A stretch of DNA of 64,000 nucleotides, taken from NCBI GenBank assembly GCA_002840365.1, contig PHAO01000001.1, forward strand, positions 652,360-716,359. The letters run 5' to 3'. This document shows positions 130 to 56,890 of the stretch, in pieces. A program made the position numbers and the translations under genes. Below the pieces are notes generated by a model, which saw nothing but the letters and a program-made list of their open reading frames with translations, was not told the origin of the DNA and made no database searches. This DNA is from Candidatus Dojkabacteria bacterium HGW-Dojkabacteria-1. Its GTDB lineage: Bacteria > Patescibacteriota > Dojkabacteria > SC72. Positions within the stretch are counted from its first letter, which is position 1. Each line of letters starts with the position of its first letter.

Positions 130-210
130 ATAAACTCGCCCATTATATCATGCCTAACAACTTTTTTCTTTTATTTGACTACCATTAATATCTTCAATAT
201 CATCATATAT

Positions 211-1425
211 ATGACTGTCCAGATAAAAAACAAAAAGATATTTATACTCCTTTTACTGCTATCTCTCTTTGTAGCTCCCCTATCAGTATTAGCATCAGAG
301 TTAGATTCTACAAATTTCAAAATTGTCGGAGCTACAACGCAAGGAGGAGGAATACTAGGTACAGCTAGTGGAGATTACTCTGCTTTAATAGGGATTGGAG
401 GTATTTCATCAAATCCAAGAATATATTCAACAAATTACAGACTATATACTAGTCCAGAAAAAGCTTTTGTCCCAGCAGTACCAACTACATCCTGTTTTGA
501 AACAACAACAGATGGATCTTCTAATTGTACAACCGGACCAACAGAGTTAACAACAGGTGGAATGGTTGCAATATGTGGAGCAGGAGGTTGCTACAACAGA
601 GCAAGGTTTGAGATAGATACACAGAACAATCCAACAGACACCCTTTATGCTGTAATGATTTCGGAGGACAACTTTTCTTCTGATATTAGATATGTTGATG
701 CTTCTACCTTTTGGCCAGAGAGTAGTTCTACACATAACTTAAGTGACTTTATGACTAAAACAGATTGGGAAACAGAAACATTTAATATCCAAGGCTTGGC
801 AGCAGGAACTACCTACTATATTAAAATATTTGCTCTTAAAGGAGACTTTACTCAATCAGATGCAGGACCAAGTGCAAATGCAACTACTGCACTAGGTAAT
901 GTTTTCTTTGATATTGATATTGCTGGAGAAACTGGATATACAGCAGAAAGTTCACCTCCCTACTCCATATCCTTTACAGGGGCATACCAATTAATTGGTG
1001 GTTCAGCAGCAATAACTAATGGTAACAGAATATGGATGGATGCTGAAACTAACTCAGAAGGAGGTTTTGCCATTATCATGAATGGACAATATGGAGGTCT
1101 TTACAGTCCTACTACAACACAAACAATTACATCTGCTACTGCAAATCTAGACTCAGTTCCTTCAGGTTTCGGATTACAAAGTGAATACATCGACTATGAT
1201 GACAGTTCTCCTTTGTATGGAGAGATTACAGCTACTACCGATTACAGTGGGAGTATTAATAGTGTAGGAATAATTAGTACCACCCCTAACAAGATATATG
1301 ATGGAGATGGACCAACAGTGGCAGGAAGAATGGCTCTAAAGGTTATAGCTAAGCCAGGAACTTCATATACTCCATCCAATGACTATCAAGAAACTATAAC
1401 CTTAATATTTGTACCTAGATATTAA
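211..1425 (+). CDS. Secreted Thr/Ser/Gly-rich cell-surface protein (N-terminal signal peptide, beta-rich/FN3-like region); first gene of a 4-gene surface operon
   Basis: ORF track 175..1425; the likelier start is Met at 211 (MTVQIKNKKIFILLLLLSLFVAPLSVLASE, positively charged n-region then hydrophobic core then ASE). Composition is dominated by T/S/G/N with no catalytic motifs. C-terminus SYTPSNDYQETITLIFVPRY resembles the C-terminus of the next gene. Confidence 0.6.
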   Translation: MTVQIKNKKIFILLLLLSLFVAPLSVLASELDSTNFKIVGATTQGGGILGTASGDYSALIGIGGISSNPRIYSTNYRLYTSPEKAFVPAVPTTSCFETTTDGSSNCTTGPTELTTGGMVAICGAGGCYNRARFEIDTQNNPTDTLYAVMISEDNFSSDIRYVDASTFWPESSSTHNLSDFMTKTDWETETFNIQGLAAGTTYYIKIFALKGDFTQSDAGPSANATTALGNVFFDIDIAGETGYTAESSPPYSISFTGAYQLIGGSAAITNGNRIWMDAETNSEGGFAIIMNGQYGGLYSPTTTQTITSATANLDSVPSGFGLQSEYIDYDDSSPLYGEITATTDYSGSINSVGIISTTPNKIYDGDGPTVAGRMALKVIAKPGTSYTPSNDYQETITLIFVPRY

Positions 1426-1512
1426 AAATACCTATTGACATGGAAATAAAGTATAGGTAATCTGTAATCAGAATAAAGATAGTAGTTTTAATAATTTTTT
1501 ACTCTGCCCAAT

Positions 1513-2628
1513 GTGAGAAGCTTGAAAACCCTCTTAAGAATAGGAATTCCCACATTATTAATAGTAGCTTTTGGTTCTTTCTTCATATACTTTTCATCAC
1601 AAGCAGCTTCATTAACAGCTGTATATGTATTCTTTAGTAGAATTCAAGCTGGATTAGATGGTTCAGGCGCAAATGCAGTTCAATTAATCCTAGCAGTAGC
1701 CCCAGCACAAAGTATGGGTTCTGGAGGTACAGTAACAATAGAATTTCCAGATGCAGGAGATACAACATGGTGTAGAGCTGCAGGTACTATGACTGCAACT
1801 GGAGTTACCTCATCAGCTGCTGATATGTCTGCAACAAACTGGACAATAGATAGCGCTCTTCCTGGCACCCTTTCGGCTTCATGCTCACAAGGTTCTGGTG
1901 CAGGCTCTGTTGATACAATTACAATAACAGGAGTTGGCGCTTTAACTGCAAATGAAACATATGGTGTACAGATTACAACCAGTACTGGTAGATTGGGAAC
2001 AAATGGTACCCCAGGACAACACGAATTAACAGTAACCGTTTCTAGTGGAGCTACAATTGACTCAAAAACATTCAAAGTTCAATTAGTATCAAATGATCAA
2101 GTAGTAGTTAGTGCTACTGTTTCAGATGCCCCAAGTGTTACATGTTCTATTAGTAGCAACTCTGTAAACTTAGGAACTCTTTACCCAGGGGGTGCATATG
2201 CCGTAGGTTCACATACAATAACAACAAATACTTCAGTAGCAGGATATTATTGGGCTGCGTATGGTACAGGGGATGGTTCTAGTGATGCTGGTTTATGGAA
2301 ATCAGCAGCAACGACTCACCTTATTCAATCAGGTCCAGGAGCAACTCTTGATTTAACAGTCCCAGGAAGTGAAGGTTTCGGAATGACAGTATCTGACCCA
2401 GATGCTGGAGGTTCTGCCGTTGTACCTTCAAATTTCTCTGATGCTTCAGCTGGAACATTTGGTACTCTTGATCGATTATATGCAGGAGCAAAGCTAATTC
2501 TTTACCAGAATGGTGCACAAGCTAGTGCAGAGGCAGCTACAGTAACTTACGGAGCTAGAGCAGGAGCATCTGCACCTGCAGGTTCATACCAGGAAACAGT
2601 CACCTTTATATGTGGTGGTTACTACTAG
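1513..2628 (+). CDS. Secreted Thr/Ser/Gly/Ala-rich cell-surface protein, paralog-like of the upstream gene
   Basis: N-terminal hydrophobic signal/anchor (IGIPTLLIVAFGSFFIYF). Low-complexity T/S/G/A-rich body. C-terminus ...SYQETVTFICGGYY shares a Y-Q-E-T-[IV]-T-x-I motif with gene 1. Confidence 0.6.
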   Translation: MRSLKTLLRIGIPTLLIVAFGSFFIYFSSQAASLTAVYVFFSRIQAGLDGSGANAVQLILAVAPAQSMGSGGTVTIEFPDAGDTTWCRAAGTMTATGVTSSAADMSATNWTIDSALPGTLSASCSQGSGAGSVDTITITGVGALTANETYGVQITTSTGRLGTNGTPGQHELTVTVSSGATIDSKTFKVQLVSNDQVVVSATVSDAPSVTCSISSNSVNLGTLYPGGAYAVGSHTITTNTSVAGYYWAAYGTGDGSSDAGLWKSAATTHLIQSGPGATLDLTVPGSEGFGMTVSDPDAGGSAVVPSNFSDASAGTFGTLDRLYAGAKLILYQNGAQASAEAATVTYGARAGASAPAGSYQETVTFICGGYY

Positions 2629-3601
2629 TACTTTGATAATGATATTAAAAATACTTAAGGAATATAACAGAATATTTTTACTGCCCATAATTCTACTCTG
2701 TTTAGGTGCAACCCCTATATTAGCGCAGAGTGCTTTGTCTATCGGAGTTTCCCCTACTTCTAAAGTAATAAAAGTAAGTCCTGGAGATGTTTTTTCTGAT
2801 GAAATTGTATTTTGGAATCTTTCTGAAACTGCAGATACATATTACATATATATAAGAGGATTTAGACAGATTGAGAATCAACCGGGAACTGCAATTATAC
2901 TAACTGATGAAGAAGAATCCAAAGCTTTGTATTCTGCTTCTAAATGGATAACTGTAGACAAGGAATCTATGTATCTTGAACCAAATAAAAATACCAAACT
3001 AAGATATACAATTAATGTACCAAGAGATATTACAAATGGTGAATATAATGCTCAAATATTTCTCATTTCCGAGTCAGAAGGTGGAGCCCAAGGAACTATG
3101 ACCTTTGCAAATCTTGCAGCAGGAACCCCTATCTTACTTCAAGTAGGAGATGAGTTTGTAGAAAATGCAGAACTTCTTCGCTTTATGGCAGACAAAAAGA
3201 CCTATGAAAGAGTAAATGTAGACTTTCTTACACAAATTAAAAACTTAGGTGATACACACATTACACCAGCAGGAGAAATAGTTATTGAGAATATTTTTAA
3301 ACAGGAAGTTGCTAGAATACCCTTTAACAGAAACAGACAAAGCTTACTAAGAGATAATCTAGGTAACTATATCGATAACTGGAGTCAATCAGGATATATT
3401 TCACCTGCAAAAATGCTAACAATCGGCCCTATGAAAGCCAAATTGTTAGTAACATACAGAAGTATGCAACCAGGCTTTGCAACCCTCTCTGCAGAAACAA
3501 CCTTTTGGATTATTCCATGGAAATTAATCATCGCTATCTGTGTGGTTCTTCTTACTGGTATAATCATATTTGTAAGTAAGAAGAAAATTCAAAGAAGATA
3601 A
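2612..3601 (+). CDS. Cell-surface protein with N-terminal signal peptide and C-terminal transmembrane anchor
   Basis: Signal peptide (RIFLLPIILLCLGATPILAQS) and C-terminal TM helix plus basic tail (IIPWKLIIAICVVLLTGIIIFVSKKKIQRR). Start overlaps the previous gene's end, suggesting an operon. Confidence 0.6.
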   Translation: MVVTTSTLIMILKILKEYNRIFLLPIILLCLGATPILAQSALSIGVSPTSKVIKVSPGDVFSDEIVFWNLSETADTYYIYIRGFRQIENQPGTAIILTDEEESKALYSASKWITVDKESMYLEPNKNTKLRYTINVPRDITNGEYNAQIFLISESEGGAQGTMTFANLAAGTPILLQVGDEFVENAELLRFMADKKTYERVNVDFLTQIKNLGDTHITPAGEIVIENIFKQEVARIPFNRNRQSLLRDNLGNYIDNWSQSGYISPAKMLTIGPMKAKLLVTYRSMQPGFATLSAETTFWIIPWKLIIAICVVLLTGIIIFVSKKKIQRR

Positions 3602-4497
3602 TGAAACTGATTAAAATATTCTTTACATTAATATTTTTGTATACCCTTTTAGGTATACCCTACTCCTTTGCTAATAGCCTTTATCCTGCAATAAACGAAG
3701 TTAAACTACCTCAAGGACAAAGAGCTATTGCTATGGTCACCTTTGAAAACAAAGAGGAGAGAGATACAGAGATATTACTTTCTGTATATGAATACAATCC
3801 AAAAACTGATGAAATCATTAAAGATAGTAGAAATAACTTTCTTAAAGTAGATACAGACACATTTGTAGTAAAAGCTAAGGAAAAGAAGGAGATACCATAT
3901 GAAATAGTGCCTGTTTCTAACCTACAATTAGGAACATATTTCAATATATTGGTACTAACAGAAGTAAGTAGTACAAAGGATGTATATATAGATAAAGGGA
4001 TATCACAACTAGTTGTTTTACATGTTGTAGATCCGTATGGAGAGGTGCAGGGTGTAACGACAAGTGACTACTCTGTAAGGATAGATGTCGTACAGAAAGG
4101 GATACCATTTTTAACACCAGTAGAGCTAAGATATACGATTGTAAATAATTCGAAGTATGTAATAACTCCAGGAGGGAGATTAGAGATATTCAACAAAAGA
4201 AGTAATTACAAACCAGAATATATATATGTTAATCAAGAAAAGACAAGACTTTATCCAGGAGAAAAGATAGAGAAAAAAGTTTCAGTAAAAAATTGGAATT
4301 TTTCTGATCTTTTTTCTGAGAGGATTGTAATTGGAAATATTAGTAGTGGTTTAGACAGTAGTGTTAAAACTGTACAGACGACTATAAATAGCTATGTATA
4401 TGAGATACTTGGAGTATTAACAATTGGTATAGTTACAATCTTACTAATAAAATCCCTAAAGGAAGATACTAAAAAGAAATCTAAAACATCTTCATAA
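3601..4497 (+). CDS. Cell-surface protein with signal peptide and C-terminal TM anchor (second of a pair)
   Basis: ATGA start/stop overlap with the previous gene. N-terminal signal (IFFTLIFLYTLLGIPYSFANS) and C-terminal TM plus K-rich tail (VLTIGIVTILLIKSLKEDTKKKSK). Confidence 0.6.
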   Translation: MKLIKIFFTLIFLYTLLGIPYSFANSLYPAINEVKLPQGQRAIAMVTFENKEERDTEILLSVYEYNPKTDEIIKDSRNNFLKVDTDTFVVKAKEKKEIPYEIVPVSNLQLGTYFNILVLTEVSSTKDVYIDKGISQLVVLHVVDPYGEVQGVTTSDYSVRIDVVQKGIPFLTPVELRYTIVNNSKYVITPGGRLEIFNKRSNYKPEYIYVNQEKTRLYPGEKIEKKVSVKNWNFSDLFSERIVIGNISSGLDSSVKTVQTTINSYVYEILGVLTIGIVTILLIKSLKEDTKKKSKTSS

Positions 4498-18252: not shown

Positions 18253-18894
18253 ATGTCAGACCTAGAAATTAAAGATACAAGAGATTCTACAGGAATTAAT
18301 GACTTAATGGCAGTATTAGAAGAAGGATATCCAAATGCTCATATTAAATTTCTTGACTATACCCAATCTTATGGTCCTGATAGTGAGAATCACCAGTTTC
18401 AACAGAAGGGAGATGGTGAAACATTTGTTAATCCTTTTGGAGATAAGGGTGGGCATTACAGAGCAGAACTTTTTGTACACGGAATTAGAAATTCTCTTGT
18501 AGATCCTGAAAATGAAGAGAACAAAATATTAATATATCCTTCTTTTGATAAGGAGGGAAATGTTGCTACAATAAGATTACTTAAATATCCAAGTACCCTA
18601 CTTCAAAAAATAAAAGAAGATTTTTTGCTTAGAAAAGATTCTCTAAATATTCCAAACGATACACAAAGGATTAGTAAAATCCCAAAAATTAGAAATGGGG
18701 AGCCGATCGGGAAAGACGGTGAGATTACATGCTTTGATCCTTTGTTAAATTCAGAGTCTACAAATAGAATTTTATATAGTCCTGAGAAAATTAACAAAAT
18801 AAAAAGTAATTCTAAACCTATTCAATGGGGAAAAAGCAAATCAATCTATCCTTATGAAAATAACAGTGGACAAAGAATCTTTCTTTTAGTTTAG
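18253..18894 (+). CDS. Hypothetical protein (no recognisable domain) on the opposite strand inside the rpsB-tsf-frr block
   Basis: A 213-aa ORF with normal hydrophilic composition and no TM segment. It sits in the slot where pyrH normally lies. Confidence 0.5.
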   Translation: MSDLEIKDTRDSTGINDLMAVLEEGYPNAHIKFLDYTQSYGPDSENHQFQQKGDGETFVNPFGDKGGHYRAELFVHGIRNSLVDPENEENKILIYPSFDKEGNVATIRLLKYPSTLLQKIKEDFLLRKDSLNIPNDTQRISKIPKIRNGEPIGKDGEITCFDPLLNSESTNRILYSPEKINKIKSNSKPIQWGKSKSIYPYENNSGQRIFLLV

Positions 18895-18906
18895 AATACT
18901 TAAATA

Positions 18907-19623
18907 CTACTTACCAAATTCCCAGATGAGTATTCTTCTTATCTCAATTGGTTCTCCCAATTTTGATATTGCCTCATCCAAGAGATTTTTTATAGTCTTA
19001 CTCTCGTCTTTAAACCATTTCTGTTCTAAAAGACATTTCTCTTCGAGATATTTGTTTAATTTCCCTTCTACTATTTTCTCTGCAATGTTTGCAGGTTTGC
19101 CTTCTGCTTCTGCTTCTTTTGTAAATATTCCTTTTAATTCTTCCAATTTTTCAGCAGGAATACTCTCTTGTGATACATATGTTGGTTTCATTGCAGCTAC
19201 TTGAAGTGCTACCTCATGTACAAATGTTCTAAAATCCTCGTTTCTTGCAACAAAATCTGTCTTACATGTTGCTTCTACGAGTGCTACTAATTTTTGTTCT
19301 TTACCATGTACATATGTTTCTATAAGGCCCTCACCTACTTCGGCTACAGTATCTGGTTCAATAGGTTCATCCCATCCTCTTTCTTTTATTATTGATACTG
19401 CTTTTTCAAAATCTTTCTCTGCCTCTTCGAATGCAAGCTTACAAAGACCAATCTTTGCCCCTGTAAGATTATGTAATCTGTTAATTACATCACTTCTACT
19501 ATTGATGTACTCTATTGCCTTGTTCATATCTCCTCCACTTTTAGCTAATGCCTCTTTACAAAGTGCCATACCAGCAGAAGTTTTTGCTCTAAGTAACTTT
19601 ATATCCTCTATTGTTGCTCCCAT
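18907..19623 (-). CDS. tsf: Elongation factor Ts (short form)
   Basis: N-terminal UBA-like motif LRAKTSAGMALCKEALAKSGGDMNKAIEYI, directly downstream of rpsB. Confidence 0.85.
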   Translation of the reverse strand: MGATIEDIKLLRAKTSAGMALCKEALAKSGGDMNKAIEYINSRSDVINRLHNLTGAKIGLCKLAFEEAEKDFEKAVSIIKERGWDEPIEPDTVAEVGEGLIETYVHGKEQKLVALVEATCKTDFVARNEDFRTFVHEVALQVAAMKPTYVSQESIPAEKLEELKGIFTKEAEAEGKPANIAEKIVEGKLNKYLEEKCLLEQKWFKDESKTIKNLLDEAISKLGEPIEIRRILIWEFGK

Positions 19624-19641: not shown

Positions 19642-20793
19642 TTATTTAATAGCTTTAAGAATTTCTTCTACCGCCTTCTCTCCTACACCTTTGATACCTT
19701 TAAGGTCATCTTTTGTTTTTCCTGCCAAGTCTTCAACTGTTTCGATTCCTGATTCTTTTAATGCCTTCTCTATTCTTACTGAAAGACCTAAGTCTTCAAT
19801 TTTTCTAGAATTAGATTCTGCTTTTACTGCTTCTGCTGCTGCTATTTCCTCTTCTATATTCTTCTCTCTCTTTACTACTCTTACAACTCCTGAAGTTTGT
19901 ACATCGGTCTTTCCCTCTCTCATAGCTTTCATTCTTAATCTTTCTTCTTCTTCCATTTTTTCTTGTCTTTCTTTTTCTTCAATATATCTTGTTTGAAGAT
20001 TTCTTAAGTTTGCTTCATGGTTTGTTCTTAAAGCTCTAAGAGATTCTGATTTTTTACCATCTTTTATTACCTCTTCAAAGAGTGAAACGAAAAGTGAAAT
20101 ACTCTTTATAGAGTCATCATTTGCCGGAATTGGATAATCTACTAAATCAGGATCACAGTTCGTATCTATTAATGCTAATACAGGGATACCTGCGATTTTA
20201 GCCTCATTGATAGCATTCTTTTCTACCTTACTATCTATTACTATCAACATCTTTGGCAATTCATCCATGAACTTTATACCTTCATATACCTTGTTCATTC
20301 TTTGAACCTGTCTTTCCATTAAAAGAATTTCTTTTTTAACAAGATCTTCACCACCTGATGCAAGATTTTCTTCCATTCTTACTAATCCTTGAATACTCTT
20401 TCTCATATGATCGAAGTTTGTGAAAAGTCCACCTGGCCATCTTTTGGTTATATAGAAGGCGCCAGATTCTTTTGCACTCTTTTCAATCAATCCTGCAGCT
20501 TGACCTTTAGTTCCTACAATTAATACATTACCTTTATCAACAATATTGTTTAAATCTGTTAATGCTACTTCAAGAAGCTTTCTTGTTTTTACAAGGTCAA
20601 TGATATGTACACCATTTCTGGTTTCATATATGAATTTCTTCATCTTTGGATTCCAAGCACTTCCTTTGTGTCCGAAGTGAGATCCTGCTTGAAGGAATGT
20701 AATTAATTCTGGGATTTGAACTTTTAGGCTTTTCTTTTCTGTCTCTGCCTTAGGTGTTACAGCCTTTTTTGAGACTTCTTTTGTTTTTTCCAT
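19642..20793 (-). CDS. rpsB: 30S ribosomal protein S2 with an about 130-aa C-terminal extension ending in a helix-hairpin-helix (RNAP alpha-CTD-like) domain
   Basis: S2 core (HFGHKGSAWNPKMKKFIY...IVGTKGQAA...ALIDTNCDP). Then a KE-rich linker and LSVRIEKALKESGIETVEDLAGKTKDDLKGIKGVGEKAVEEILKAI, which resembles the RpoA alpha-CTD HhH. Confidence 0.85.
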   Translation of the reverse strand: MEKTKEVSKKAVTPKAETEKKSLKVQIPELITFLQAGSHFGHKGSAWNPKMKKFIYETRNGVHIIDLVKTRKLLEVALTDLNNIVDKGNVLIVGTKGQAAGLIEKSAKESGAFYITKRWPGGLFTNFDHMRKSIQGLVRMEENLASGGEDLVKKEILLMERQVQRMNKVYEGIKFMDELPKMLIVIDSKVEKNAINEAKIAGIPVLALIDTNCDPDLVDYPIPANDDSIKSISLFVSLFEEVIKDGKKSESLRALRTNHEANLRNLQTRYIEEKERQEKMEEEERLRMKAMREGKTDVQTSGVVRVVKREKNIEEEIAAAEAVKAESNSRKIEDLGLSVRIEKALKESGIETVEDLAGKTKDDLKGIKGVGEKAVEEILKAIK

Positions 20794-20911
20794 TTGTTTT
20801 TCCTTTTTACACCTATCTCTTGTGGGTAGAATTTTCTCTATCCAGGAAATATCAGAGATATGTGAGATTAATTAAATACGACCCTGATTATATACTCTAA
20901 GTACATATTTT

Positions 20912-21553
20912 TCAACCCATTACATTAACAGTATCCCATCTATTTTTTCCAATAATTAGGTGATCTAAGAGTTGAATTCCAACTAATTCCAAGGACTCTA
21001 GTATTCTCTTTGTAAAAAGTACATCCTCATTACTTGGAGTACTATCTCCAGAGGGATGATTATGTGCTATTAATATGAATGAAGAATTGTTAACTATTGC
21101 TGGATACAGCACCTCCCTTGGAAGAACATTTGCACAGTTAATGCTACCAACAGCAACTGTTTCTCTTGAGATATACTCAAATCTCGAATTAAGACAAAGG
21201 ATATCAACTTTTTCTTTCTTTAAATTTTCCATATCTTTAAAGATTTCGTAGGCATCTTTTGATTGTGTAATTCTTACTTTTTGAGAATCAAATATCCCAT
21301 AGACCCTTCTTCCTAACTCTATTCCTGCAACTATCCTTGTTGCTGTAACAATACCTACTCCCCTTACTTTCACCATTTCTTTTACATTAATATCTCCCCC
21401 ATCCTTTAAAGATTTTCTTACAAAAGACAGAGTACATTTAGATATTTTTTGGAAATTACTACCTTTTATACCACTACCAACCAGTAATTGAATTAATTCT
21501 GAGTCGGAAAGAGAGTCAACGCCTTTAAGGAAAAGTTTTTCTCTTGGTAGCAT
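20912..21553 (-). CDS. radC: RadC-like JAB-domain protein (UPF0758)
   Basis: JAMM/JAB motif HNHPSGDSTPSNEDVLFTKRI plus an N-terminal HhH-like region. Confidence 0.85.
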   Translation of the reverse strand: MLPREKLFLKGVDSLSDSELIQLLVGSGIKGSNFQKISKCTLSFVRKSLKDGGDINVKEMVKVRGVGIVTATRIVAGIELGRRVYGIFDSQKVRITQSKDAYEIFKDMENLKKEKVDILCLNSRFEYISRETVAVGSINCANVLPREVLYPAIVNNSSFILIAHNHPSGDSTPSNEDVLFTKRILESLELVGIQLLDHLIIGKNRWDTVNVMG

Positions 21554-34571: not shown

Positions 34572-35237
34572 ATGTTTGAAACTTCAGGCTTAACAGAATG
34601 GATATTACAACATGGAGTATCAAAAATGGCACTTGAGTTACTCATAGCAGTAGCTGTTTTAGCTACTATTGTCAGTATAGCAAGATACGTTATTGGCTCT
34701 AAAACATATGGTATATATGCACCAATACTTTTGGCAATTGCATATTCATATACTGGATTAAAATATGGCCTAGCTATTACCATTATTGTAATACTAACAT
34801 CCCTACTCTCTTACAATGTACTCAAGAGAATTAGAATGCACTACATTACTCGTATTGCTACAAACTATACAATTTTAGCAATGGTATTAGTTCTTTTCTT
34901 TGTGTTGATAGATATGTTTGGATTGGGGTTAGAGAATATGGCAAATATACCACCACTAGCTTTCATCTCTATCGCAGCTCTCTCAGACTTTTTCATCAAA
35001 CAGTATGTTAAAAAATCTTTTGCAGGTTCAATATTAACCTTAACAGGAACAATATTAGTGGCTGCAATCGGATGGTTTGTAATAACTAGGGAAATTATCT
35101 CTGAATATATGATAAACAATCTTTGGGTTCTCCCCTTGCTAACATTAGTAAACTTACTACTCGGTCAGTTTACAGGTTTAAGAATCAAGGATTACTTTAG
35201 ATTCAAACTATCAAACAGAGATGATTCATCTAATTAA
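34572..35237 (+). CDS. Stand-alone 7-transmembrane protein (7TM module of the kind found fused to inactive transglutaminase in ATP-grasp-associated systems)
   Basis: A 221-aa protein with seven hydrophobic helices (ALELLIAVAVLATIVSIA; IYAPILLAIAYSY; LAITIIVILTSLLSY; ILAMVLVLFFVLIDMF; PLAFISIAALSDFFI; ILTLTGTILVAAIGWFVI; LWVLPLLTLVNLLLGQF). Its 3' end overlaps the next ATP-grasp gene by 17 nt. Confidence 0.65.
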   Translation: MFETSGLTEWILQHGVSKMALELLIAVAVLATIVSIARYVIGSKTYGIYAPILLAIAYSYTGLKYGLAITIIVILTSLLSYNVLKRIRMHYITRIATNYTILAMVLVLFFVLIDMFGLGLENMANIPPLAFISIAALSDFFIKQYVKKSFAGSILTLTGTILVAAIGWFVITREIISEYMINNLWVLPLLTLVNLLLGQFTGLRIKDYFRFKLSNRDDSSN

Positions 35238-36696
35238 CAACAAATACAAACAGGTTTTAGGATTAAACAGAAGGAACCAAGAGTATGTAAGACCTTATAA
35301 TTCTCCCTCTGCGAAAGCTATTGCAGATAACAAGATTCTTACAAAGAGAATTCTCAAAAAAGAATTCATTCAGACTCCTGATGTATACAAATTAATTAGA
35401 ACAAAAAAACAACTACAGTTTCTAGATTGGGATAGCCTTCCAAAGAGTTTTGTAATAAAGCCTAACAAGGGAACAGGTGGAAACGGAATAATAGTCTTCT
35501 ATGGAAAAAAGAAAGGCCAAGAGGCTTGGATTAGGCCTAATGGCACCATTATGAGTAAAAGAGATATCATTCTTCACATTGAAAATATTCTCGAAGGAAG
35601 ATTCTCAATGGGTTCGAAAAACGACATTGCAATAATAGAAGAAAGAATAAAGACCGATCCACTCCTTAAGCAGTACTCTTACAAAGGTGTTCCTGATATT
35701 AGAATAATCTGTTTTAATCAGGTCCCAGTAATGGGAATGCTTAGATTACCTACTAAAAGGTCAAATGGTACTGCAAACTTACATTCAGGTGCAATATGTA
35801 CAGGTATAGATATGGAATCAGGAATAACTACCTACTCTATGCATATGCAAGCATCAGCTTTTAGATCAGATTCATATAAACTAATAGATTCAACATTAGA
35901 TTTACAAGAAAACAAACAATTAAGTGGAGTACAAATACCATATTGGAATGAAATGTTAGAGATTGCACTTAAGTGTCAAAAAGCTAGTAGACTTGGGTAT
36001 ATAGGGGTAGACATAGCAATAGATGCAGAAAAAGGTCCAGTAGTATTTGAAATAAATGCAAGACCAGGACTTGGCATACAAGTCGCTAATCAAGCAGGTC
36101 TAAGATGGAGATTAGAAAAGGTTAAAGATTTGAAAATAAAGAGCATAAAGCATGGAATTAGAGTTTCAAAAAATCTCTTTGGTGGTGAAATTGAGGAAAG
36201 TATTGAAGCAATTAGTGGTAGAAAAGTTCTAAATATTACAGAAAGAATATCTGTATTTAACAAAGGTACTGATGTATTAAAAATTAAAAGAACAAAAAAT
36301 ATTAAAAAGGAAATAGTTAAAGCATTCATGGATACAGGAATACTTACATCAAGAATCTCCTCTACCCTTGCAAACAGAATAGGGTATCTAAAAGCTACTA
36401 AAGATTTCGAAAACTTTGATATTCCTAAGAGATTTACCAGTTTTAAGGAGGCTCAGGAATATATTGATAAGTATGAGAAAGAGATATGTGAACATCCTGA
36501 TATAAAAAGATTAGCTAAAATCCTAGAAGATGGTGAGATAAAGATAAGGCCTGTTTTTGATATACCAATAAAAATTTCTGATACAGTTAAAGTAACAGAA
36601 TTTGTATCTACGGACGCAGAAGATAGTACATATCAAGTAGTACTTGGTAGATCTGATCTTTCTGGATATTTGATTGATACAAGCAATACCTTCTAA
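35221..36696 (+). CDS. ATP-grasp amidoligase 1: alpha-L-glutamate-ligase-like (RimK-related) domain fused to a C-terminal retropepsin-like (ATP-dependent Zn-protease-type) domain
   Basis: N-terminus LGLNRRNQEYVRPYNSPSAKAIADNKILTKRIL...FVIKPNKGTGGNGIIVF...DIRIICFN...FEINARPGLGIQ is typical of the alpha-L-glutamate ligase-like family. The C-terminal roughly 180 aa end in YQVVLGRSDLSGYLIDTSNTF, which resembles the retropepsin-like domain of these systems. Confidence 0.75.
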   Translation: MIHLINNKYKQVLGLNRRNQEYVRPYNSPSAKAIADNKILTKRILKKEFIQTPDVYKLIRTKKQLQFLDWDSLPKSFVIKPNKGTGGNGIIVFYGKKKGQEAWIRPNGTIMSKRDIILHIENILEGRFSMGSKNDIAIIEERIKTDPLLKQYSYKGVPDIRIICFNQVPVMGMLRLPTKRSNGTANLHSGAICTGIDMESGITTYSMHMQASAFRSDSYKLIDSTLDLQENKQLSGVQIPYWNEMLEIALKCQKASRLGYIGVDIAIDAEKGPVVFEINARPGLGIQVANQAGLRWRLEKVKDLKIKSIKHGIRVSKNLFGGEIEESIEAISGRKVLNITERISVFNKGTDVLKIKRTKNIKKEIVKAFMDTGILTSRISSTLANRIGYLKATKDFENFDIPKRFTSFKEAQEYIDKYEKEICEHPDIKRLAKILEDGEIKIRPVFDIPIKISDTVKVTEFVSTDAEDSTYQVVLGRSDLSGYLIDTSNTF

Positions 36697-36714
36697 TATA
36701 TTTTAGGAAAATAT

Positions 36715-37695
36715 ATGCAAAAAACTTACGAACAATATTTACAAGAAGCAGGAAACGTACATCTTGCCTACTATATTGAAGCTGCAGATATTTTAGGAAT
36801 TAAATACGAAATAGTTAAGAAATCCTTAATGGCTAGATTTGAATACAACAACAGACACTGGTTTATCATTAATACTGCAACACCTCTTACTAATACAACA
36901 AGTACGACTATAGCTAAAAGAAAAAATCTTACTAATGAGGTATTAGCGAAAGCAGGAATTGCAGTACCAAAACAGGTACCACTAAGAGATAAGAAAGATG
37001 CAGTAAAGTTTTTTGATGAATATAAAAATATTGTCATAAAGCCATCTCAACAACTTGGAGGGATAGGCGTTACCCTACTTCCCAAAGATAAGAGACAGGT
37101 AGAAAAAGCCTTTAAGCATGCTCTCTCAAAATCAAAATCAGGAGATACAGCAAAAGTAATAGGAGAAGAATTCATAGAAGGAGAAAATTATAGACTTCTG
37201 GTTGTTGGTGATTCTGTTGTAGGCATTGTAAGAAGAAAGGCAGCATTTGTCATAGGTAATGGAAAGGATAATATTAAAAAATTGATTGAAGAGAAGAATA
37301 CTTTAAGAAAACAAAATATGCTTAAACCAATTCTCATAGATAACGAGGTAAAGCTGAGATTGGAAAATTTAAAAATAAATCTAAGATATATTCCAAAAGA
37401 TGGTGAGGAAGTTTTATTAAGATATAACTGTAACCTAACAACTGGTGGTACTACACAAGAGTGTGCTAGTGAGGCACATCAGTACTATAAAGATTTAGCT
37501 ATTAATGCTGTAAAAGCAATTGGTACACAGTTTGGTGGAGTAGATATAATTACTCCTGATATTACACAACCTGCCAAATGTGGTGTGAATGAAATAAACT
37601 ACAACCCTGGACTTCGTTTACACTATAAGGCAGACGAAGGAGAGGCCGTAAAGGTTGCTGTTCCAATAATGGAATATATAGTAAATAATATTTAA
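36715..37695 (+). CDS. ATP-grasp amidoligase 2: cyanophycin-synthetase-like ATP-grasp (G-domain only, no Mur-ligase domain)
   Basis: ILGIKYEIV...FIINTATPLTNTTSTTIAKRKNLTNEVLAKAGIAVPK, VIKPSQQLGGIGVTL, GENYRLLVVGDSVVGIVRRKAAFVIGNGKDNIKKLIEEKN, and EINYNPGLRLH. The pattern parallels the CphA N-terminal ATP-grasp region. Confidence 0.75.
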   Translation: MQKTYEQYLQEAGNVHLAYYIEAADILGIKYEIVKKSLMARFEYNNRHWFIINTATPLTNTTSTTIAKRKNLTNEVLAKAGIAVPKQVPLRDKKDAVKFFDEYKNIVIKPSQQLGGIGVTLLPKDKRQVEKAFKHALSKSKSGDTAKVIGEEFIEGENYRLLVVGDSVVGIVRRKAAFVIGNGKDNIKKLIEEKNTLRKQNMLKPILIDNEVKLRLENLKINLRYIPKDGEEVLLRYNCNLTTGGTTQECASEAHQYYKDLAINAVKAIGTQFGGVDIITPDITQPAKCGVNEINYNPGLRLHYKADEGEAVKVAVPIMEYIVNNI

Positions 37696-37705
37696 TGCCC
37701 AAAAC

Positions 37706-39400
37706 ATGTCAAAAACTATACAAGGTTTAAATCTAGAATCACAATTTACAACAGTAAAGATAGAATTAAAAGGTAAAGATATTGGGCAAATAACAAAGCT
37801 TCTAGACACTATTAGCTCTTTTCACCCTATTTTCTTTAAAGAATATATTCTCTCAAGTGAAGAATTAAGCATTCGTTCAAAGCTTCCTGCAATATGGAGA
37901 GAATCTGATGAATATATTCAAAAGCTCTCAAGTGGAGACATTACATATGAGAAAGCATATGAAGGAGTTGTTAATACAGTAATTACTAAAAGAGTTAAGT
38001 CCATGTCTACAATTCCCCTACTACATGCTGCTCATAATAAGAATATTGAAACAAGCTTAGCAGTTATAAATAGAAACATTGTGGAAGGATATGAACTTGG
38101 ATATAGCAATACTTTTAACAGATACTATGTAATAGGCTGTGGTAAAGGATCACAAATAACAGGTTCTATTGCTTCAAGTAAAGATGCCGCTATAGCACAA
38201 AAAATACAGAGAGATAAATGGTCTACAAATACCATAATAGAAAGATTAGGATTACCAATGCCAAAGTGGCAGATATTGGATAAAGAGAGTGACATAGAAA
38301 AGGTTTGGAAGGAGTATGAGAAGCCAGTCGTTATTAAGCCCACTGGTTTAACAGGTGGTAAAGGAGTAACAGTAGGAATAGAGAATATTGAGAATGCAAA
38401 GAAAGCTTTTAATAGGGCAAAAAAAGAGACAAGCAATAAAGTTCGGTCCCCTTGGCAAACTAAAATTATGATTCAGGAACAGGTCGCAGGAGAAGATTAC
38501 AGGCTTTTAGTTATAAATGGTAAGTTAGAAGTAGCTACAAAAAGAATACCCGCATTTGTTGTTGGAGATGGGAAGAAAAACATTAAGGAATTAATTGAAG
38601 AAACAAATTCTGATCCAAGAAGAGATGTCACAAATCCAGCTCACATACTCAAACCAATTGTAATTGATGAGCCTCTGTTAGATCTATTAGAAAAAAACAA
38701 ATTAACTCTTGAATCTATCCCAGAGAAAGATATGAAAGTCTTTGTAAGAAATATCGCAAGTATGAGTCAAGGTGGAATAACAGAAGATTTTACAGATAAT
38801 GTAAGTAAGGAAATTAAAATTTTGGTAGAGAGTATTGCTCAATCAATACATGCATTTACACTTGGAGTAGATGTAATGTGTAAGGATTCGTCTAAACCAC
38901 TTACTAAAGAAAATGGCGCTATACTAGAGATTAATACTATGCCAGAGGCATATTTGAATCTTTTCCCTGTATTGGGTAAAGAAAGAGGATACGTTGCAGA
39001 CAGATTTGTCGATGGACTACTTTCAGAAAATAAATGTCAAAAGTATGTAGTTGTGGGACAAAGTATTAATGACATACCAACAACATTAAGGAAATGGTGG
39101 AGACAAGACAAGAATCAAAATATTGGAGAGATAATTGAAGACAGATACTATGTAAATGGCCTTCAGATTAACGATGGACTAGAAAGATGGCATGCATTTG
39201 AAGCAATTAAGTGTAACGCTTCATTAGATACAATAATATTACACCATAGAGATTGGAATAATGTTAAAGAGGATGGTTTGGGTTTTGACCATATTAATAC
39301 ACTGTATATAACAAAAGATATGGCTAGAGAGAAAGAGTACATGAAGTTAATGAAGAAATATAAAGGTATGAAGTTAATAGATAATATTAAAATAATATAA
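37706..39400 (+). CDS. ATP-grasp amidoligase 3: CphA-like ATP-grasp with about 190-aa N-terminal and about 130-aa C-terminal extra domains
   Basis: Central region PVVIKPTGLTGGKGVTVGIEN, GEDYRLLVINGKLEVATKRIPAFVVGDGKKNIKELIEETNSDPRR, and GAILEINTMPE. The N-terminal domain precedes the ligase core as in CphA. No Mur-ligase motifs. Confidence 0.7.
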   Translation: MSKTIQGLNLESQFTTVKIELKGKDIGQITKLLDTISSFHPIFFKEYILSSEELSIRSKLPAIWRESDEYIQKLSSGDITYEKAYEGVVNTVITKRVKSMSTIPLLHAAHNKNIETSLAVINRNIVEGYELGYSNTFNRYYVIGCGKGSQITGSIASSKDAAIAQKIQRDKWSTNTIIERLGLPMPKWQILDKESDIEKVWKEYEKPVVIKPTGLTGGKGVTVGIENIENAKKAFNRAKKETSNKVRSPWQTKIMIQEQVAGEDYRLLVINGKLEVATKRIPAFVVGDGKKNIKELIEETNSDPRRDVTNPAHILKPIVIDEPLLDLLEKNKLTLESIPEKDMKVFVRNIASMSQGGITEDFTDNVSKEIKILVESIAQSIHAFTLGVDVMCKDSSKPLTKENGAILEINTMPEAYLNLFPVLGKERGYVADRFVDGLLSENKCQKYVVVGQSINDIPTTLRKWWRQDKNQNIGEIIEDRYYVNGLQINDGLERWHAFEAIKCNASLDTIILHHRDWNNVKEDGLGFDHINTLYITKDMAREKEYMKLMKKYKGMKLIDNIKII

Positions 39401-39402
39401 AT

Positions 39403-40356
39403 ATGAACTACTTAATTATAGATAAAAGACAAAGAGTCGAAACAGGTAATGAGGACAAAATCGCCACTGCCAATCTAAGACTCATGGAAGAGTTGGATAA
39501 AAAAGGTATACCCCACTCTCTTGCATACAATGATGAACTAGAATTTCAGTTCATTGATGGTGAAACAGTGATAAAAGCGAAAGGTGAAGATATTCGAAAA
39601 TACACTCATATACTGCTTAGAGGGCATGCTTTACATAACGAAATGGAGTATCAATTCAAGAGATACATAGTGGACTATATAGATGAACATAATAGAAAAA
39701 ATCCAAATGAAAAGGTATTAATACAAAATAGTGAAGCTATGAAAAGGTTTCCTTACTACAATAAGATAGCTCTTGCCCTATTCTGCTCTATCAATGATAT
39801 ACCTTACTTCAATACATATTTTAGAACAGATGGAAATTATTTAGCACACAGGGACATACTCGAAGCTTTTCCTCTTATAATTAAGGAGTATGCAGGAGCA
39901 AATAGAGTTGAAATTATTGATGGTAAGGAAAAAATTAAAAAGAACGTCTTTAAAATAAGTAATGAAGATGATTATAGACAGGAGTATTTAAAGGATTTAG
40001 ATCACTCTAGGTTTTTCATACAGGAATTCTCTGATAGCGGTAAGGATATGAGAATCTTCGTAAAATTAGGCAAAGTCATTGGTGGATGGAAGAGAGAGGC
40101 AGTGGATGGTTTCATGACTGTAAAGGATGGAAATTACACTATGTACAACGAACCCGAGAAGGAAATAAAGGAATTTGCTGAAAATGTTGCACAAAAACTC
40201 TCAGCAGATTTTGTAGCAGTAGATATTATGTATATGGGAGACAAACCCTTACTACAGGAGATTAGTTATCACCCAGGTTTCAAAGCATACGAAACAAAAA
40301 TAGAGGGAGAACCTGTAAATATAGCAGAAGCAATAGTAACAGCATTTAAGGAGTAA
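39403..40356 (+). CDS. ATP-grasp amidoligase 4: RimK/glutathione-synthetase-like
   Basis: FFIQEFSDSGKDMRIFVKLGKVIGGWKREAVDGFMTV...AENVAQKLSADFVAVDIMYMGDKPLLQEISYHPGF is a RimK-like C-terminal ATP-grasp core. The start is 2 nt after the previous gene. Confidence 0.7.
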   Translation: MNYLIIDKRQRVETGNEDKIATANLRLMEELDKKGIPHSLAYNDELEFQFIDGETVIKAKGEDIRKYTHILLRGHALHNEMEYQFKRYIVDYIDEHNRKNPNEKVLIQNSEAMKRFPYYNKIALALFCSINDIPYFNTYFRTDGNYLAHRDILEAFPLIIKEYAGANRVEIIDGKEKIKKNVFKISNEDDYRQEYLKDLDHSRFFIQEFSDSGKDMRIFVKLGKVIGGWKREAVDGFMTVKDGNYTMYNEPEKEIKEFAENVAQKLSADFVAVDIMYMGDKPLLQEISYHPGFKAYETKIEGEPVNIAEAIVTAFKE

Positions 40357-41523
40357 CTAAATACCTGCTTTCTTAAATATTGATTTCCAAAGTTCTTTGG
40401 TAGGAACTATGTGAGCATTCGGAATTAACCCTTCATCTACCCATTCACATTGATTAAAATCAATCTTTCCTGCATAGAGCTTTTCATACAATGAAGGATC
40501 TTTTTCAAGTTGCCTAATAACCTTTCTAAATCCTCTGAAATACACAATATCCTTTGCATATATTCCTGGATAACTAGTATCCCCTAGTCCTCTTTTTACC
40601 CTATATACAACATCAAAAGCTGATCTCCTTGGAAGTGCACCTAATACACTGTTATACAACTCTCTAAACGTTAGTTCTTCTCCAATATATATTGCCCATA
40701 CAAGTGCTGCTTTCTCTTTTAACCATCTAAGAGTTAACAAATCCATATTAGATTCATTCCATGTAGCCAAACCCTCCTCGACATCTAGATAACTGGGTAA
40801 ATTGGCTTTTGCTAAAGCATCAAAACCACTCTTCGCACCATTAGTAGACCTAAGAACATGGGTACCAACTTCATGTACAATTGTTTTTCTTAGTTTAAAC
40901 TTTGATCTCTCTATATTTGGATCTAAGAGTACCTGCTTTGTCTTTATACCAACCTTAGCTCCATTTTTTGCAATATTCATAGATTTAGCAACACTCCATC
41001 CATCTAAATATAATTCCTTAAACACAATATCAAAAACCTCTTGTATATCATCAAACCTTAGCATATCCTCAGGTTTAGCCTTTTTCATATTTGCCAACTT
41101 ATATGCATCTACCTTACCCCTTAATACTCTAGTTGCATTTCTAAATAGCTTTGGAGATGGCTTGGAATATTTCTTGTATGAGAGATCTGTAACTAATTCG
41201 TTATTACCTACTGAATGCATAAGGTCGCTAGAGTCTTTTTTAGATTCGATAAGTTGGATATAGAAGTCGGAAATTCTAGGATCTACATCAGTAATTTCTT
41301 TCAATGAAGAAAGTTTCTTAAAAATCTCTTCATTTTTGTTTTTAATTAATCTATATGTAAATTGCGGCTCATAGTTATCTGAGTCGAAAAATTTCTTTTT
41401 CTCTACATCTAAATTAGTAGGAGTAAACACTAAGCCAATGGGAATTCTTAATTGTGAGAGGTGATTTGTAACCTCCTCGAGCTTCATTGTTGATTTATCC
41501 TTTTTAGAGAAGATATTTACCAT
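40357..41523 (-). CDS. DUF1704 / QEGLA-motif zinc metallopeptidase (MATCAP-like carboxypeptidase family)
   Basis: TIVHEVGTHVLRSTNG (HExxxH-type zinc site) and downstream DVEEGLATWNE (QEGLA-like motif). About 390 aa, typical for this family. Convergent with the ATP-grasp operon and co-directional with the MreB paralog upstream. Confidence 0.65.
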   Translation of the reverse strand: MVNIFSKKDKSTMKLEEVTNHLSQLRIPIGLVFTPTNLDVEKKKFFDSDNYEPQFTYRLIKNKNEEIFKKLSSLKEITDVDPRISDFYIQLIESKKDSSDLMHSVGNNELVTDLSYKKYSKPSPKLFRNATRVLRGKVDAYKLANMKKAKPEDMLRFDDIQEVFDIVFKELYLDGWSVAKSMNIAKNGAKVGIKTKQVLLDPNIERSKFKLRKTIVHEVGTHVLRSTNGAKSGFDALAKANLPSYLDVEEGLATWNESNMDLLTLRWLKEKAALVWAIYIGEELTFRELYNSVLGALPRRSAFDVVYRVKRGLGDTSYPGIYAKDIVYFRGFRKVIRQLEKDPSLYEKLYAGKIDFNQCEWVDEGLIPNAHIVPTKELWKSIFKKAGI

Positions 41524-52996: not shown

Positions 52997-53476
52997 TTAA
53001 TTGTTCTTTAATTCTACATTAGGCTCATCATTCTGTAAATCAAAATATCTTTGTAAATCAGAGAGGATTTCTTCTTCTTTCAAAGTAAAATCTGATTTAC
53101 TTAAAATCCATTGATGATTTGTTGCATGATTGGAAAGAATTTCTTCTAATACAATATTTTGGTCGTCACTCATCGTAGAACCTGCGAGAAGAATACCTCC
53201 CTCACTTGGATGCTCTCTTAAAATAACTTCTTTTAATATCTTTGATCCCAAAACTTCATTGCCAAGATTTTCGTCTAATATTACAAAAGGAATAAGGCCC
53301 TCAGAGTATATTTGTTCTAAAGCAAAAAGTACTTCTTCCTCCATTTCACCCTCTGTAACCATTAATATTTTCGCAGGGGATAACCTACTTGCAAAGAGTT
53401 CATAGTCCCAAGCCTTATGTTCATCATCATCTACTATTAGAAAGGCCAATTTCTCTTGGAGAATAGCTTTATTCAT
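52997..53476 (-). CDS. Stand-alone degenerate receiver (CheY/REC-like) domain protein, paralog A
   Basis: LAFLIVDDDEHKAW...LIPFVILDENLGNEVLGSKILKEVI...ILLAGSTMSD resembles REC beta1 (DD), beta3 (LD) and beta4 (T/S). It is paralogous to the next gene (GLIPFVILDENLG vs GLIPLIILEQYLG). Confidence 0.5.
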   Translation of the reverse strand: MNKAILQEKLAFLIVDDDEHKAWDYELFASRLSPAKILMVTEGEMEEEVLFALEQIYSEGLIPFVILDENLGNEVLGSKILKEVILREHPSEGGILLAGSTMSDDQNIVLEEILSNHATNHQWILSKSDFTLKEEEILSDLQRYFDLQNDEPNVELKNN

Positions 53477-53559
53477 ATCTTTTGTAATCGATATTAGTAT
53501 TATAGGATATCATAATTCTTTTATCTCTACCACTTGAAAAGTCTAGTAATAATTGGAAA

Positions 53560-54006
53560 TTACCGTATTAGTTTGTATTCTAAATTTGTCTCTATCAAGT
53601 ATTCACTACATACTTCCTCTATATCATTTGGATGCGCTCCACACCCTACGCACCAATCACTCCCTTCCACAATACTTTCTAATATTTCTCTTTGCCCATC
53701 AATACAACCATTTCCATCTGGAAGAACAATTCCCCTTTTCACTTCAGAAGAATCGAGTGCTTTCATAAAGATATCAGTTCCTACACAATAGTGTTTACCA
53801 AGGTATTGTTCAAGTATTATTAATGGAATTAACCCTTCTCTTGAAGATTGTAATATTGCTTCTTGCAGTTCAAAAAGCATATCTCCCTCTGAAATGATAA
53901 TTGGTATTTTATCGTTGTATTCAAAATATCTTATAACTTTAGCTTTCTTGGAAGGTTTAATATTCACTATTATTGGAGAGAATCTGGACAGTAGATCTTG
54001 ATTCAT
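53560..54006 (-). CDS. Stand-alone degenerate receiver-like domain protein, paralog B (Cys-rich C-terminus)
   Basis: Shares the core with paralog A but lacks the N-terminal acidic DD pair. It has a C-terminal CIDGQ...WCVGCGAHP cluster. Confidence 0.5.
   Translation of the reverse strand: MNQDLLSRFSPIIVNIKPSKKAKVIRYFEYNDKIPIIISEGDMLFELQEAILQSSREGLIPLIILEQYLGKHYCVGTDIFMKALDSSEVKRGIVLPDGNGCIDGQREILESIVEGSDWCVGCGAHPNDIEEVCSEYLIETNLEYKLIR

Positions 54007-55998: not shown

Positions 55999-56890
<892 letters not shown>

Follow-up and report, generated by a model that had tools for sequence, protein, structure and literature searches.

A ribosomal protein S2 carrying an RNA polymerase alpha-CTD-type domain on a conserved stalk in Dojkabacteria

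Why does a protein of the small ribosomal subunit end in a domain of the RNA polymerase (RNAP) alpha family? The question is raised by rpsB, the gene of ribosomal protein S2 (uS2), in a 64,000-nucleotide stretch of Candidatus Dojkabacteria bacterium HGW-Dojkabacteria-1 (contig PHAO01000001.1, positions 652,360 to 716,359; hereafter the window). A sequence-only reading had proposed that this S2 is followed by a helix-hairpin-helix (HhH) domain like the C-terminal domain of the alpha subunit (alpha-CTD). The gene is an uninterrupted and complete open reading frame (ORF) of 383 aa with an ATG start, located at 19642–20793 (stop codon 19642–19644), exactly where that reading had placed it; the terminal peptide that it quoted corresponds to residues 337–382, and the strand, which it did not give, is the minus strand. 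Core and tail lie in one frame, with neither a stop nor a frame change between them, and the product is 100% identical to the database S2 of the same organism. A sequencing or assembly artefact or a frameshift, which an out-of-frame extension would have indicated, is ruled out by the single ORF, which is shared by more than 180 clusters. The proposed architecture is borne out by profile matches, by the predicted fold and by its conservation throughout the lineage, and a genuine fusion of S2 with an alpha-CTD is close to certain.

Both ends of the protein are clearly assigned by profile matches. Pfam Ribosomal_S2 (PF00318) covers residues 34–246 (E 4e-73; 245.7 bits vs a cut-off of 26.1), and the NCBIfam model rpsB_bact (TIGR01011) reaches 264.7 bits vs 76.3. 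At the C-terminus, RNA_pol_A_CTD (PF03118) matches residues 324–382 with 62.5 bits against a gathering threshold of 23.8 (E 3e-17), spanning model positions 7–65 of 67, and HHH_5 matches residues 340–383 with 31.9 bits vs 27. Both families named for the extension by the earlier reading are therefore found above cut-off, and similarity to HhH or alpha-CTD domains is present in Pfam, NCBIfam and PDB alike. When the last 54 residues were compared with the sequences in the PDB, T. thermophilus and B. subtilis alpha-CTDs ranked highest (E about 1e-9), the S2 tail being 30–46% identical to solved alpha-CTDs. The rpoA equivalog models of NCBIfam match the tail only over their last ~50–80 positions and far below cut-off. 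The RpoA N-terminal domain (RNA_pol_A_bac / RNA_pol_L) is absent from the S2 protein and from the whole window, and was not found within 10 kb in two related loci, L001 and L002; neither a second alpha-CTD nor an rpoA is present within the window. Judged by these profiles, the tail is a member of the alpha-CTD domain family and not an RpoA.

The predicted structure is consistent with this assignment. AlphaFold2 (AF2) was run twice, on the full protein with a 46-sequence alignment (mean predicted local distance difference test score, pLDDT, 78.6) and on the extension alone. By Foldseek, the predicted uS2 core superposes on solved bacterial uS2 with a template modelling (TM) score of 0.93 and a root-mean-square deviation (rmsd) of ~1.5 Å; over about 50 solved bacterial uS2 chains, the TM score is ~0.9 and the rmsd 1.3–2.5 Å, and none of the solved uS2 in this search aligns past ~239 model columns. 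The predicted end domain comprises five helices and, with a pLDDT of only about 73, fits solved alpha-CTDs in Foldseek with an rmsd of 0.9–1.5 Å over 51–62 residues and a TM score up to 0.89. The matches include 7vpd_S (TM 0.89, rmsd 0.9 Å), 9dvt_A (0.85, 1.1 Å), 8y5t_A2 (0.80, 1.0 Å), and 1lb2 (0.78, 1.2 Å), and the next-best fold class consists of RAD51-type HhH domains. Compared with the alpha-CTD of RNAP, the S2 tail has the same family and fold, with five helices and two HhH motifs at the end of a long tether, but the attachment differs: the polymerase domain sits on the alpha N-terminal domain through a short flexible linker, whereas the S2 copy sits on uS2 through a conserved helix and block of ~85 residues. 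The S2 tail also ends at about E. coli alpha residue 308 and thus lacks the final portion of the CAP-contact patch.

How far does the architecture extend among relatives? The best 120 S2 clusters (62–100% identity; 333–405 aa, mostly 376–384) all carry PF00318 together with PF03118, and a second homology search, seeded with the most divergent fusion found (L002/P0271, 'bacterium DTUPAT1', 48% identity), again returned mostly fusions, down to 48% identity. Overall, a hidden Markov model (HMM) of the tail matches 182 of 190 related S2 clusters, so that the extension is widespread among the related S2 proteins which the earlier reading had proposed to align. A sample, rather than a census, of 80 S2 loci from species-representative genomes of ~15 phyla bears on the limit of this distribution: stalk and tail were found only in the Dojkabacteria locus L001 and in L002 among the 80 loci listed, and two other Patescibacteria (L018, L022) have a plain S2 with 26–27 residues past the core. 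Long C-terminal extensions of uS2 are otherwise common, reaching up to 147 aa in the sampled Gemmatimonadota, Leptospira, and cyanobacteria, but these are unrelated acidic or basic low-complexity tails with neither an alpha-CTD nor a match to the stalk HMM. In the S2 of the window, the fusion of the two domains is genuine and under selection, and it has been passed on throughout a clade of Patescibacteria at the level of the Dojkabacteria. Both Pfam calls on these proteins already exist in databases, and full-text literature searches found no published description of an S2–alpha-CTD fusion; the architecture amounts to a lineage-specific extension of a ribosomal protein by an already known domain.

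Alpha-CTD-like modules are widely reused outside RpoA. A search of a representative library with the tail returned 1915 matching cluster representatives, dominated by proteins with 3–12 tandem alpha-CTD-like repeats (P0121, of 806 aa, contains 12 matched stretches), and in one cluster (P0158/P0341) two copies are joined to a protein named tRNA(His) 5'-end guanylyltransferase. Among the best 150 of the 1915 (P0121–P0270), the only informative matches are two S2 fragments (P0133, P0216) and P0178, and there is no RpoA from the Candidate Phyla Radiation (CPR). This promiscuity of the module, with its tandem copies and fusions to unrelated enzymes, together with its loss in some lineages, fits a near-neutral passenger that was captured once and then carried without an important function. 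However, 182 of 190 clusters have retained the domain across a divergence that reaches 48% identity, and purifying selection is seen on specific surface residues; this does not resemble neutral drift in strongly reduced genomes (the contig is ~0.73 Mb), and a passenger of this kind is very improbable. As a separate observation, P0178 is a free-standing protein of 89 aa, encoded on an ENA contig 651 bp long. Over its C-terminal 55 residues it shares 58% identity with the S2 tail, and the pre-domain residues SRQIEDLGLSAR belong to the match; the protein may have arisen by fission of the S2 tail, or it may represent a fragment of an assembly.

From the N-terminus to the C-terminus, the parts that matter here follow each other in a fixed order: the uS2 core, a conserved helix of ~47 residues, an invariant GVVRVVK element, a variable short helix, and the alpha-CTD-type (HhH)2 domain. 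The core (residues 32–248; 20050..20700, minus strand, as are all parts of the gene) is defined by PF00318, TIGR01011, and the fold superposition. It is preceded by a Lys-rich N-terminal extension (residues 1–31; 20701..20793), the core HMM beginning at residue 32. These ~25–30 residues are predicted to be disordered (pLDDT <50 over residues 1–20) and are partly conserved, with T18 and K21 nearly invariant. On the C-terminal side, the stalk helix (residues 249–293; 19915..20049) is predicted by AF2 to run from residue 247 to 293 over ~70 Å. Next comes a conserved loop with the GVVRVVK block (residues 294–312; 19858..19914; invariant residues at G294 and G302–K308), then a second short acidic helix, variable and predicted by AF2 (residues 313–328; 19810..19857), which is deleted in the branch of L002/P0271 (absent in P0271–P0279). 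The (HhH)2 domain itself occupies residues 329–383 (19645..19809) and is supported by PF03118, PDB matches, Foldseek, and residue conservation. By our own estimate from the models, an arm composed of a ~70 Å helix, ~19 flexible residues, and a ~24 Å helix could reach roughly 100–150 Å from the core.

The stalk is not a simple spacer. The helix has a pLDDT of 76–96 in the AF2 models, and when the extension is modelled alone it forms an isolated helix with a pLDDT >90. A hydrophobic stripe runs along its first half, and the second half is ER/K-rich and contains the conserved basic residues R285, R287, K289, and R292; residues 271–293 are 70% charged, and 10 opposite-charge i/i+4 pairs are distributed over the 47-residue helix. 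The charge pattern and the isolated predicted helix would be compatible with an ER/K single alpha-helix spacer, a class of long isolated helices rich in E and K/R that have i/i+4 salt bridges and little sequence constraint. However, the stalk sequence is under strong conservation, which extends to hydrophobic positions and to basic ones that never vary, and this suggests that the helix makes contacts that a mere spacer would not. The stalk and linker region contains zero gaps in 120 orthologues, with a mean consensus fraction of 0.74 vs 0.80 for the core, and the invariant residues of the extension include R256, A261, E282, R292, G294, V304, R305, V306, and K308. The segment that the sequence-only reading described as a KE-rich coiled linker is not a loose, low-complexity filler: it is gap-free, conserved, and equipped with the invariant GVVRVVK. 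This block is retained even in L002 at 48% identity. Since residues 294–312 are conserved and yet have low pLDDT in both AF2 models, we infer a partner, and GVVRVVK would be an element that orders only against it.

Three different C-terminal forms are mounted on this stalk within the clade. All of them have the core, the helix (MEExEReRiKalkEGK), and the VVRVV block in common and match the stalk HMM with E from 1e-13 to 1e-19. The majority, including the window protein, carry the alpha-CTD domain and are mostly 376–384 aa long. In five proteins of 296–299 aa (P0310, P0316, P0321, P0328, and P0338), the chain stops just past VRVV, leaving no end module. In three others of 354–393 aa (P0304, P0318, and P0337), the domain is replaced by a histone-H1-like tail of 50–70 aa rich in Lys, Ala, and Pro (KAP tail). 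The GVVRVVK block and the stalk helix are kept with all three end types. In a neighbour-joining tree of the core, without support values, these eight forms nest among the branches bearing the alpha-CTD; it is only suggestive that the alpha-CTD end is ancestral in the clade and was later replaced or lost. The HhH domain and a polycationic tail share little beyond a generic affinity for nucleic-acid backbones.

These features bear on the possibility that the whole extension acts in cis, binding the 16S rRNA or the neighbouring proteins of its own 30S subunit and either stabilizing the reduced CPR ribosome or covering or sequestering the anti-Shine-Dalgarno 3' end of the 16S rRNA; in that case the arm would not extend to DNA or RNAP. 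Basic tails of ribosomal proteins usually bind rRNA, and the basic stalk residues and the GVVRVVK element, left unplaced by AF2, are typical of segments that become ordered on rRNA. Several rRNA tips and proteins are missing from CPR ribosomes (PMC9297842), and the main survey of these ribosomes is silent on uS2 (PMC9297842). However, the end module varies while the stalk is constant, and a fixed rRNA site should constrain the module more; the ~85-residue tether far exceeds the need of a neighbouring rRNA helix, and the fold search found nothing comparable on any solved S2. An arrangement of this kind appears to be of low probability. Even an arm that did no more than bind rRNA in cis would constitute a new ribosomal-protein architecture among the peculiarities of CPR ribosomes.

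Which surface of the alpha-CTD has been kept? The 182 tails were aligned with the alpha-CTDs of E. coli, B. subtilis, and T. thermophilus, the numbering of the E. coli domain being verified at R265, E261, N268, C269, G296, K298, S299, and V287. The S2 residues R340, G371, and K373 are the equivalents of the DNA-contacting residues R265, G296, and K298 of E. coli alpha. Among the 182 tails, the first position is occupied by R in 177, the second by G in 176, and the third by K in 177, a conservation of 97% or more. At a further DNA contact, N268, the tails have K (128/182) or N (50/182); within the same 265 determinant, C269 is changed to A or S and S299 to A, S, or T. The core of the 265 determinant (R265, G296, K298) is kept and its periphery is changed. 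In the patches for protein partners, E261 of the sigma region 4 contact (261 determinant) is G in 128/182 tails, E286 of the CAP contact patch (287 determinant) is K in 161/182, and G315, R317, and L318 of the CAP patch would lie beyond the protein end, so neither the 261 nor the 287 patch is conserved. The Lys residues at the N268 and E286 positions presumably add positive charge near the DNA-facing surface. As judged from this alignment, selection acts on the putative nucleic-acid-binding face but not on the patches for RNAP-specific partners. That the tail serves as a built-in element for nucleic-acid binding or for coupling, as the earlier reading had suggested, is plausible from such sequence evidence, and the idea is strengthened because the DNA-contact residues are kept and a polycationic tail replaces the domain in sister lineages.

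The location of uS2 on the 30S subunit defines what such an element could meet. The earlier reading had placed S2 near the mRNA entry, which is not correct, since uS2 belongs to the mRNA-exit, platform, and bS1 side of the subunit (PMC10983998, PMC5655137). Its proximity to the S1-binding region stands: the duplex of the Shine-Dalgarno (SD) and anti-SD sequences is bordered by bS1, uS2, bS21, and bS18, and uS2 anchors bS1 (PMC10983998). In mRNA-delivery complexes, the transcribing RNAP is flexibly located at the platform, the mRNA exit, and bS1 (PMC10983998), and core RNAP docks on the 30S subunit with the beta' zinc finger contacting S2 and S21 (PMC5655137). In the E. coli complex NusA-NusG-TTC-B, the KH1 domain of NusA binds S2 and S5, and AR2 and NusA-N each bind an alpha-CTD (10.1101/2020.03.01.972380). 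In addition, an engineered chimera of S2 and the S1 N-terminal domain (S2-S1NTD, 4TOI) shows that the S1 site is within reach of a chain that continues from the C-terminus of S2 (PMC4288201); the same chimera was the fourth match in the fold search with the S2 model of the window.

The most serious rival follows directly from these contacts. The alpha-CTD borne by uS2 might serve as a protein hook that binds NusA-N or another RNAP-associated factor, as the alpha-CTDs of the polymerase itself do. It would thus hard-wire the bridge from ribosome through NusA to RNAP, for which E. coli relies on separate contacts, and make transcription–translation coupling obligatory. The three players uS2, NusA, and alpha-CTD already meet in NusA-NusG-TTC-B (10.1101/2020.03.01.972380), RNAP docks directly on S2 (PMC5655137), the domain belongs to the alpha-CTD family proper (62.5 bits for PF03118 vs 31.9 for HHH_5), and the long tether is reminiscent of the flexible linker in alpha, by which the alpha-CTD searches for its partners. 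However, the exchange of the domain for a Lys/Ala/Pro tail or for nothing on the same stalk fits a specific protein interface poorly, and the known partner patches are not conserved, with E261 replaced by G and the 287 determinant lost or altered; on this balance, the hook is unlikely. A bolder form makes the ribosome-borne alpha-CTD a hard-wired coupling device, whose arm would take hold of NusA, of RNAP, or of DNA immediately upstream of the transcribing polymerase, so that each nascent SD-less mRNA would be handed to the 30S subunit. In its strongest version, the alpha subunit of the polymerase would have lost or diverged its own CTD, the domain having in effect moved from RNAP to the ribosome. 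We regard this form as distinctly unlikely.

Another contact at this site would be with a second subunit. uS2 lies at the dimer interface of Gram-positive and Thermus 100S particles, and it is prominent in papers on the 100S ribosomes of S. aureus and T. thermophilus (19 and 28 mentions), which fits an arm that pairs two 30S subunits in 100S-like dimers or binds a hibernation factor. No sequence feature points to dimerisation, though, the alpha-CTD is not known to self-associate, and the exchange with the KAP tail argues for a charge-based nucleic-acid contact; a role in hibernation therefore has hardly any likelihood.

The reading that we favour, tentatively and at slightly less than even chance as a whole, is a tethered arm of sequence-nonspecific nucleic-acid-binding character at the face of uS2 where the mRNA exits, bS1 is anchored, and RNAP docks. 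The helix and GVVRVVK would form a stalk anchored on, or projecting from, the 30S subunit at the uS2 face, holding a module that would sweep up to roughly 100–150 Å from the core. Through its two hairpins (R340, G371, and K373), the module would grip a nucleic-acid backbone or minor groove, the likeliest target being duplex nucleic acid near the ribosome, either the DNA of a transcribing complex or of the nucleoid, or structured RNA lying 5' on the message. The 30S subunits might thereby be kept beside nascent transcripts, and the loading of mRNA might be helped in an organism that hardly uses SD pairing. The identity and fold of the domain, its conservation and distribution, and the exchange of end modules are established by the analysis, and we infer every functional step of this arm. 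For its parts, nucleic-acid binding as the job of the module is judged from the sequence to have about even chances, and a specific recruitment or coupling role is somewhat doubtful.

The scarcity of SD pairing is visible in the window. SD-like motifs precede 3/52 window genes, vs a random background of 12%, and even if any start within the first 40 codons is allowed, such a motif is found in only 4/44. The 20 nt preceding the start codons of the window are 80% A+T. Similar counts were obtained in L081, a genome of the alpha-CTD type (1/20), and in L083, a tail-less genome (1/19). In the window, L081, and L083 alike, rpsB itself is the gene in which a purine tract (AAAGGAAAA) stands at the distance of an SD motif. 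For the view that the extension covers the anti-SD end of its own subunit, the position of uS2 at the border of the SD–anti-SD site, the avoidance of SD motifs in the genome, and the persistence of an SD-like tract in rpsB alone in three genomes count as a further favourable point.

Several points weigh against the tethered nucleic-acid-binding arm. SD motifs are avoided equally in the genome of the alpha-CTD type and in the one without a tail, so that tail type shows no correlation with SD usage. Five lineages manage without any end module, and hence the module is dispensable. HhH domains normally bind duplexes and not the single-stranded A/U-rich leaders expected here. The tail of the window protein has no net charge (12 K/R vs 12 D/E), unlike the KAP tails. 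The alpha-CTD is a protein-interaction hub as well, and it could be for a protein partner that residues of the R265 type are conserved; the target could also simply be the 16S rRNA in cis. Furthermore, the idea that the alpha-CTD end came first and was later replaced rests on a plain neighbour-joining tree without support values.

Comparison with known systems indicates which features are particular to this S2. In its core and in the order rpsB–tsf, the window protein is like ordinary bacterial uS2 (PF00318 / TIGR01011). The NCBIfam family NF051451, 'S2 sunset domain variant', is also an extended S2 of similar total length (a 382-position profile), a curated case which indicates that annotators already recognise S2 variants of this sort, but it has a different end domain; membership of the window S2 was rejected at 181.2 bits vs a cut-off of 710, the match covering profile positions 9–297 only, and no literature was found on this form of S2. 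The haloarchaeal L32e with an HhH domain (NCBIfam PRK12766) is a precedent for an HhH domain appended to a ribosomal protein. It differs from the S2 tail in ribosomal protein, subunit, domain of life, and HhH subfamily, and the match is weak (E 0.0013, 18 bits vs 239). The closest functional parallel is the E. coli NusA 'coupling pantograph', with the same players in the same place (uS2 with NusA KH1, uS2 with the beta' zinc finger, and alpha-CTD with NusA). However, the pantograph is built from separate proteins with the alpha-CTDs on RNAP, whereas here the alpha-CTD is covalently part of an S2 known from its sequence.

A signature domain of RNAP fixed at uS2, the place where the ribosome meets RNAP, NusA, bS1, and the message on its 5' side, and conserved throughout a candidate class, bears on how transcription and translation are linked. 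Its bearers are ultra-small organisms that cannot be cultured, with minimal genomes, reduced ribosomes, and almost no SD signals, and the three natural end types on one conserved stalk offer a ready comparative series.

The rpsB gene is also preceded by a conserved upstream region (20794..20915, minus strand), which consists of a promoter (TTGAAA-17-TATAAT, 20915..20887; 11/12 matches in the promoter scan) and a leader of ~87 nt that ends AAAGGAAAAACAA-ATG. The leader aligns across five loci (the window, L001, L002, L081, and L083), and promoter and leader are conserved where the S2 proteins are only 48–59% identical. The conserved blocks of the leader are ATCTCACATAT, TTTCCTGGA, and TAGGTGAAGAAAGGAAAAA. 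The leader is predicted to form a hairpin in which some changes are compensatory, but covariation counts against it, the z value is -0.58, and the leader has no match in Rfam; it may be an S2 autoregulatory leader.

Downstream, tsf (elongation factor EF-Ts, 238 aa; 18907..19623, minus strand) begins 18 nt after rpsB and completes the canonical rpsB–tsf pair, and rpsB followed by tsf (EF_TS Pfam family) is also found in L081, L082, and L083. The surrounding synteny is rigid across deep branches (mreBCD-pbp2-topA-radC-rpsB-tsf-frr-rseP...rpsU-yqeY-ybeY-pth). Wedged between tsf and frr in the window is an ORF of 213 aa on the opposite strand (18253–18894, plus) without a Pfam match; it is absent from this position in L081 and L083, where frr directly follows tsf. 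No second S2 was seen in the ORF set of the 64-kb window, on which no separate run of the core HMM was made, and no ribosomal-protein cluster was found at the window ends.

Elsewhere in the window, a cluster without rpoBC lies at 34572–41523, directly after nusG-rplK-rplA-rplJ-rplL, in the usual place of rpoB/rpoC. It encodes a 7TM_transglut protein, an ATPgrasp_ST ligase, three more RimK-like ATP-grasp proteins, and a MATCAP-like carboxypeptidase, and looks like a peptide-tailing and trimming system beside ribosomal genes. Runs of ORFs without a Pfam family at E <= 1e-5 are located at 175–4497 (plus), 52997–54006 (minus), and 62629–63810 (minus); four of these ORFs (416, 371, 329, and 298 aa) follow one another on the plus strand where the window begins. 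Meanwhile, at 56847–59050 (minus strand), a ComEC homologue adjoins a ComEA-like HHH_3 protein to form a DNA-uptake pair, and the ComEA-like protein, the only other HhH protein in the window, gives a weak 14-bit match to the tail HMM.

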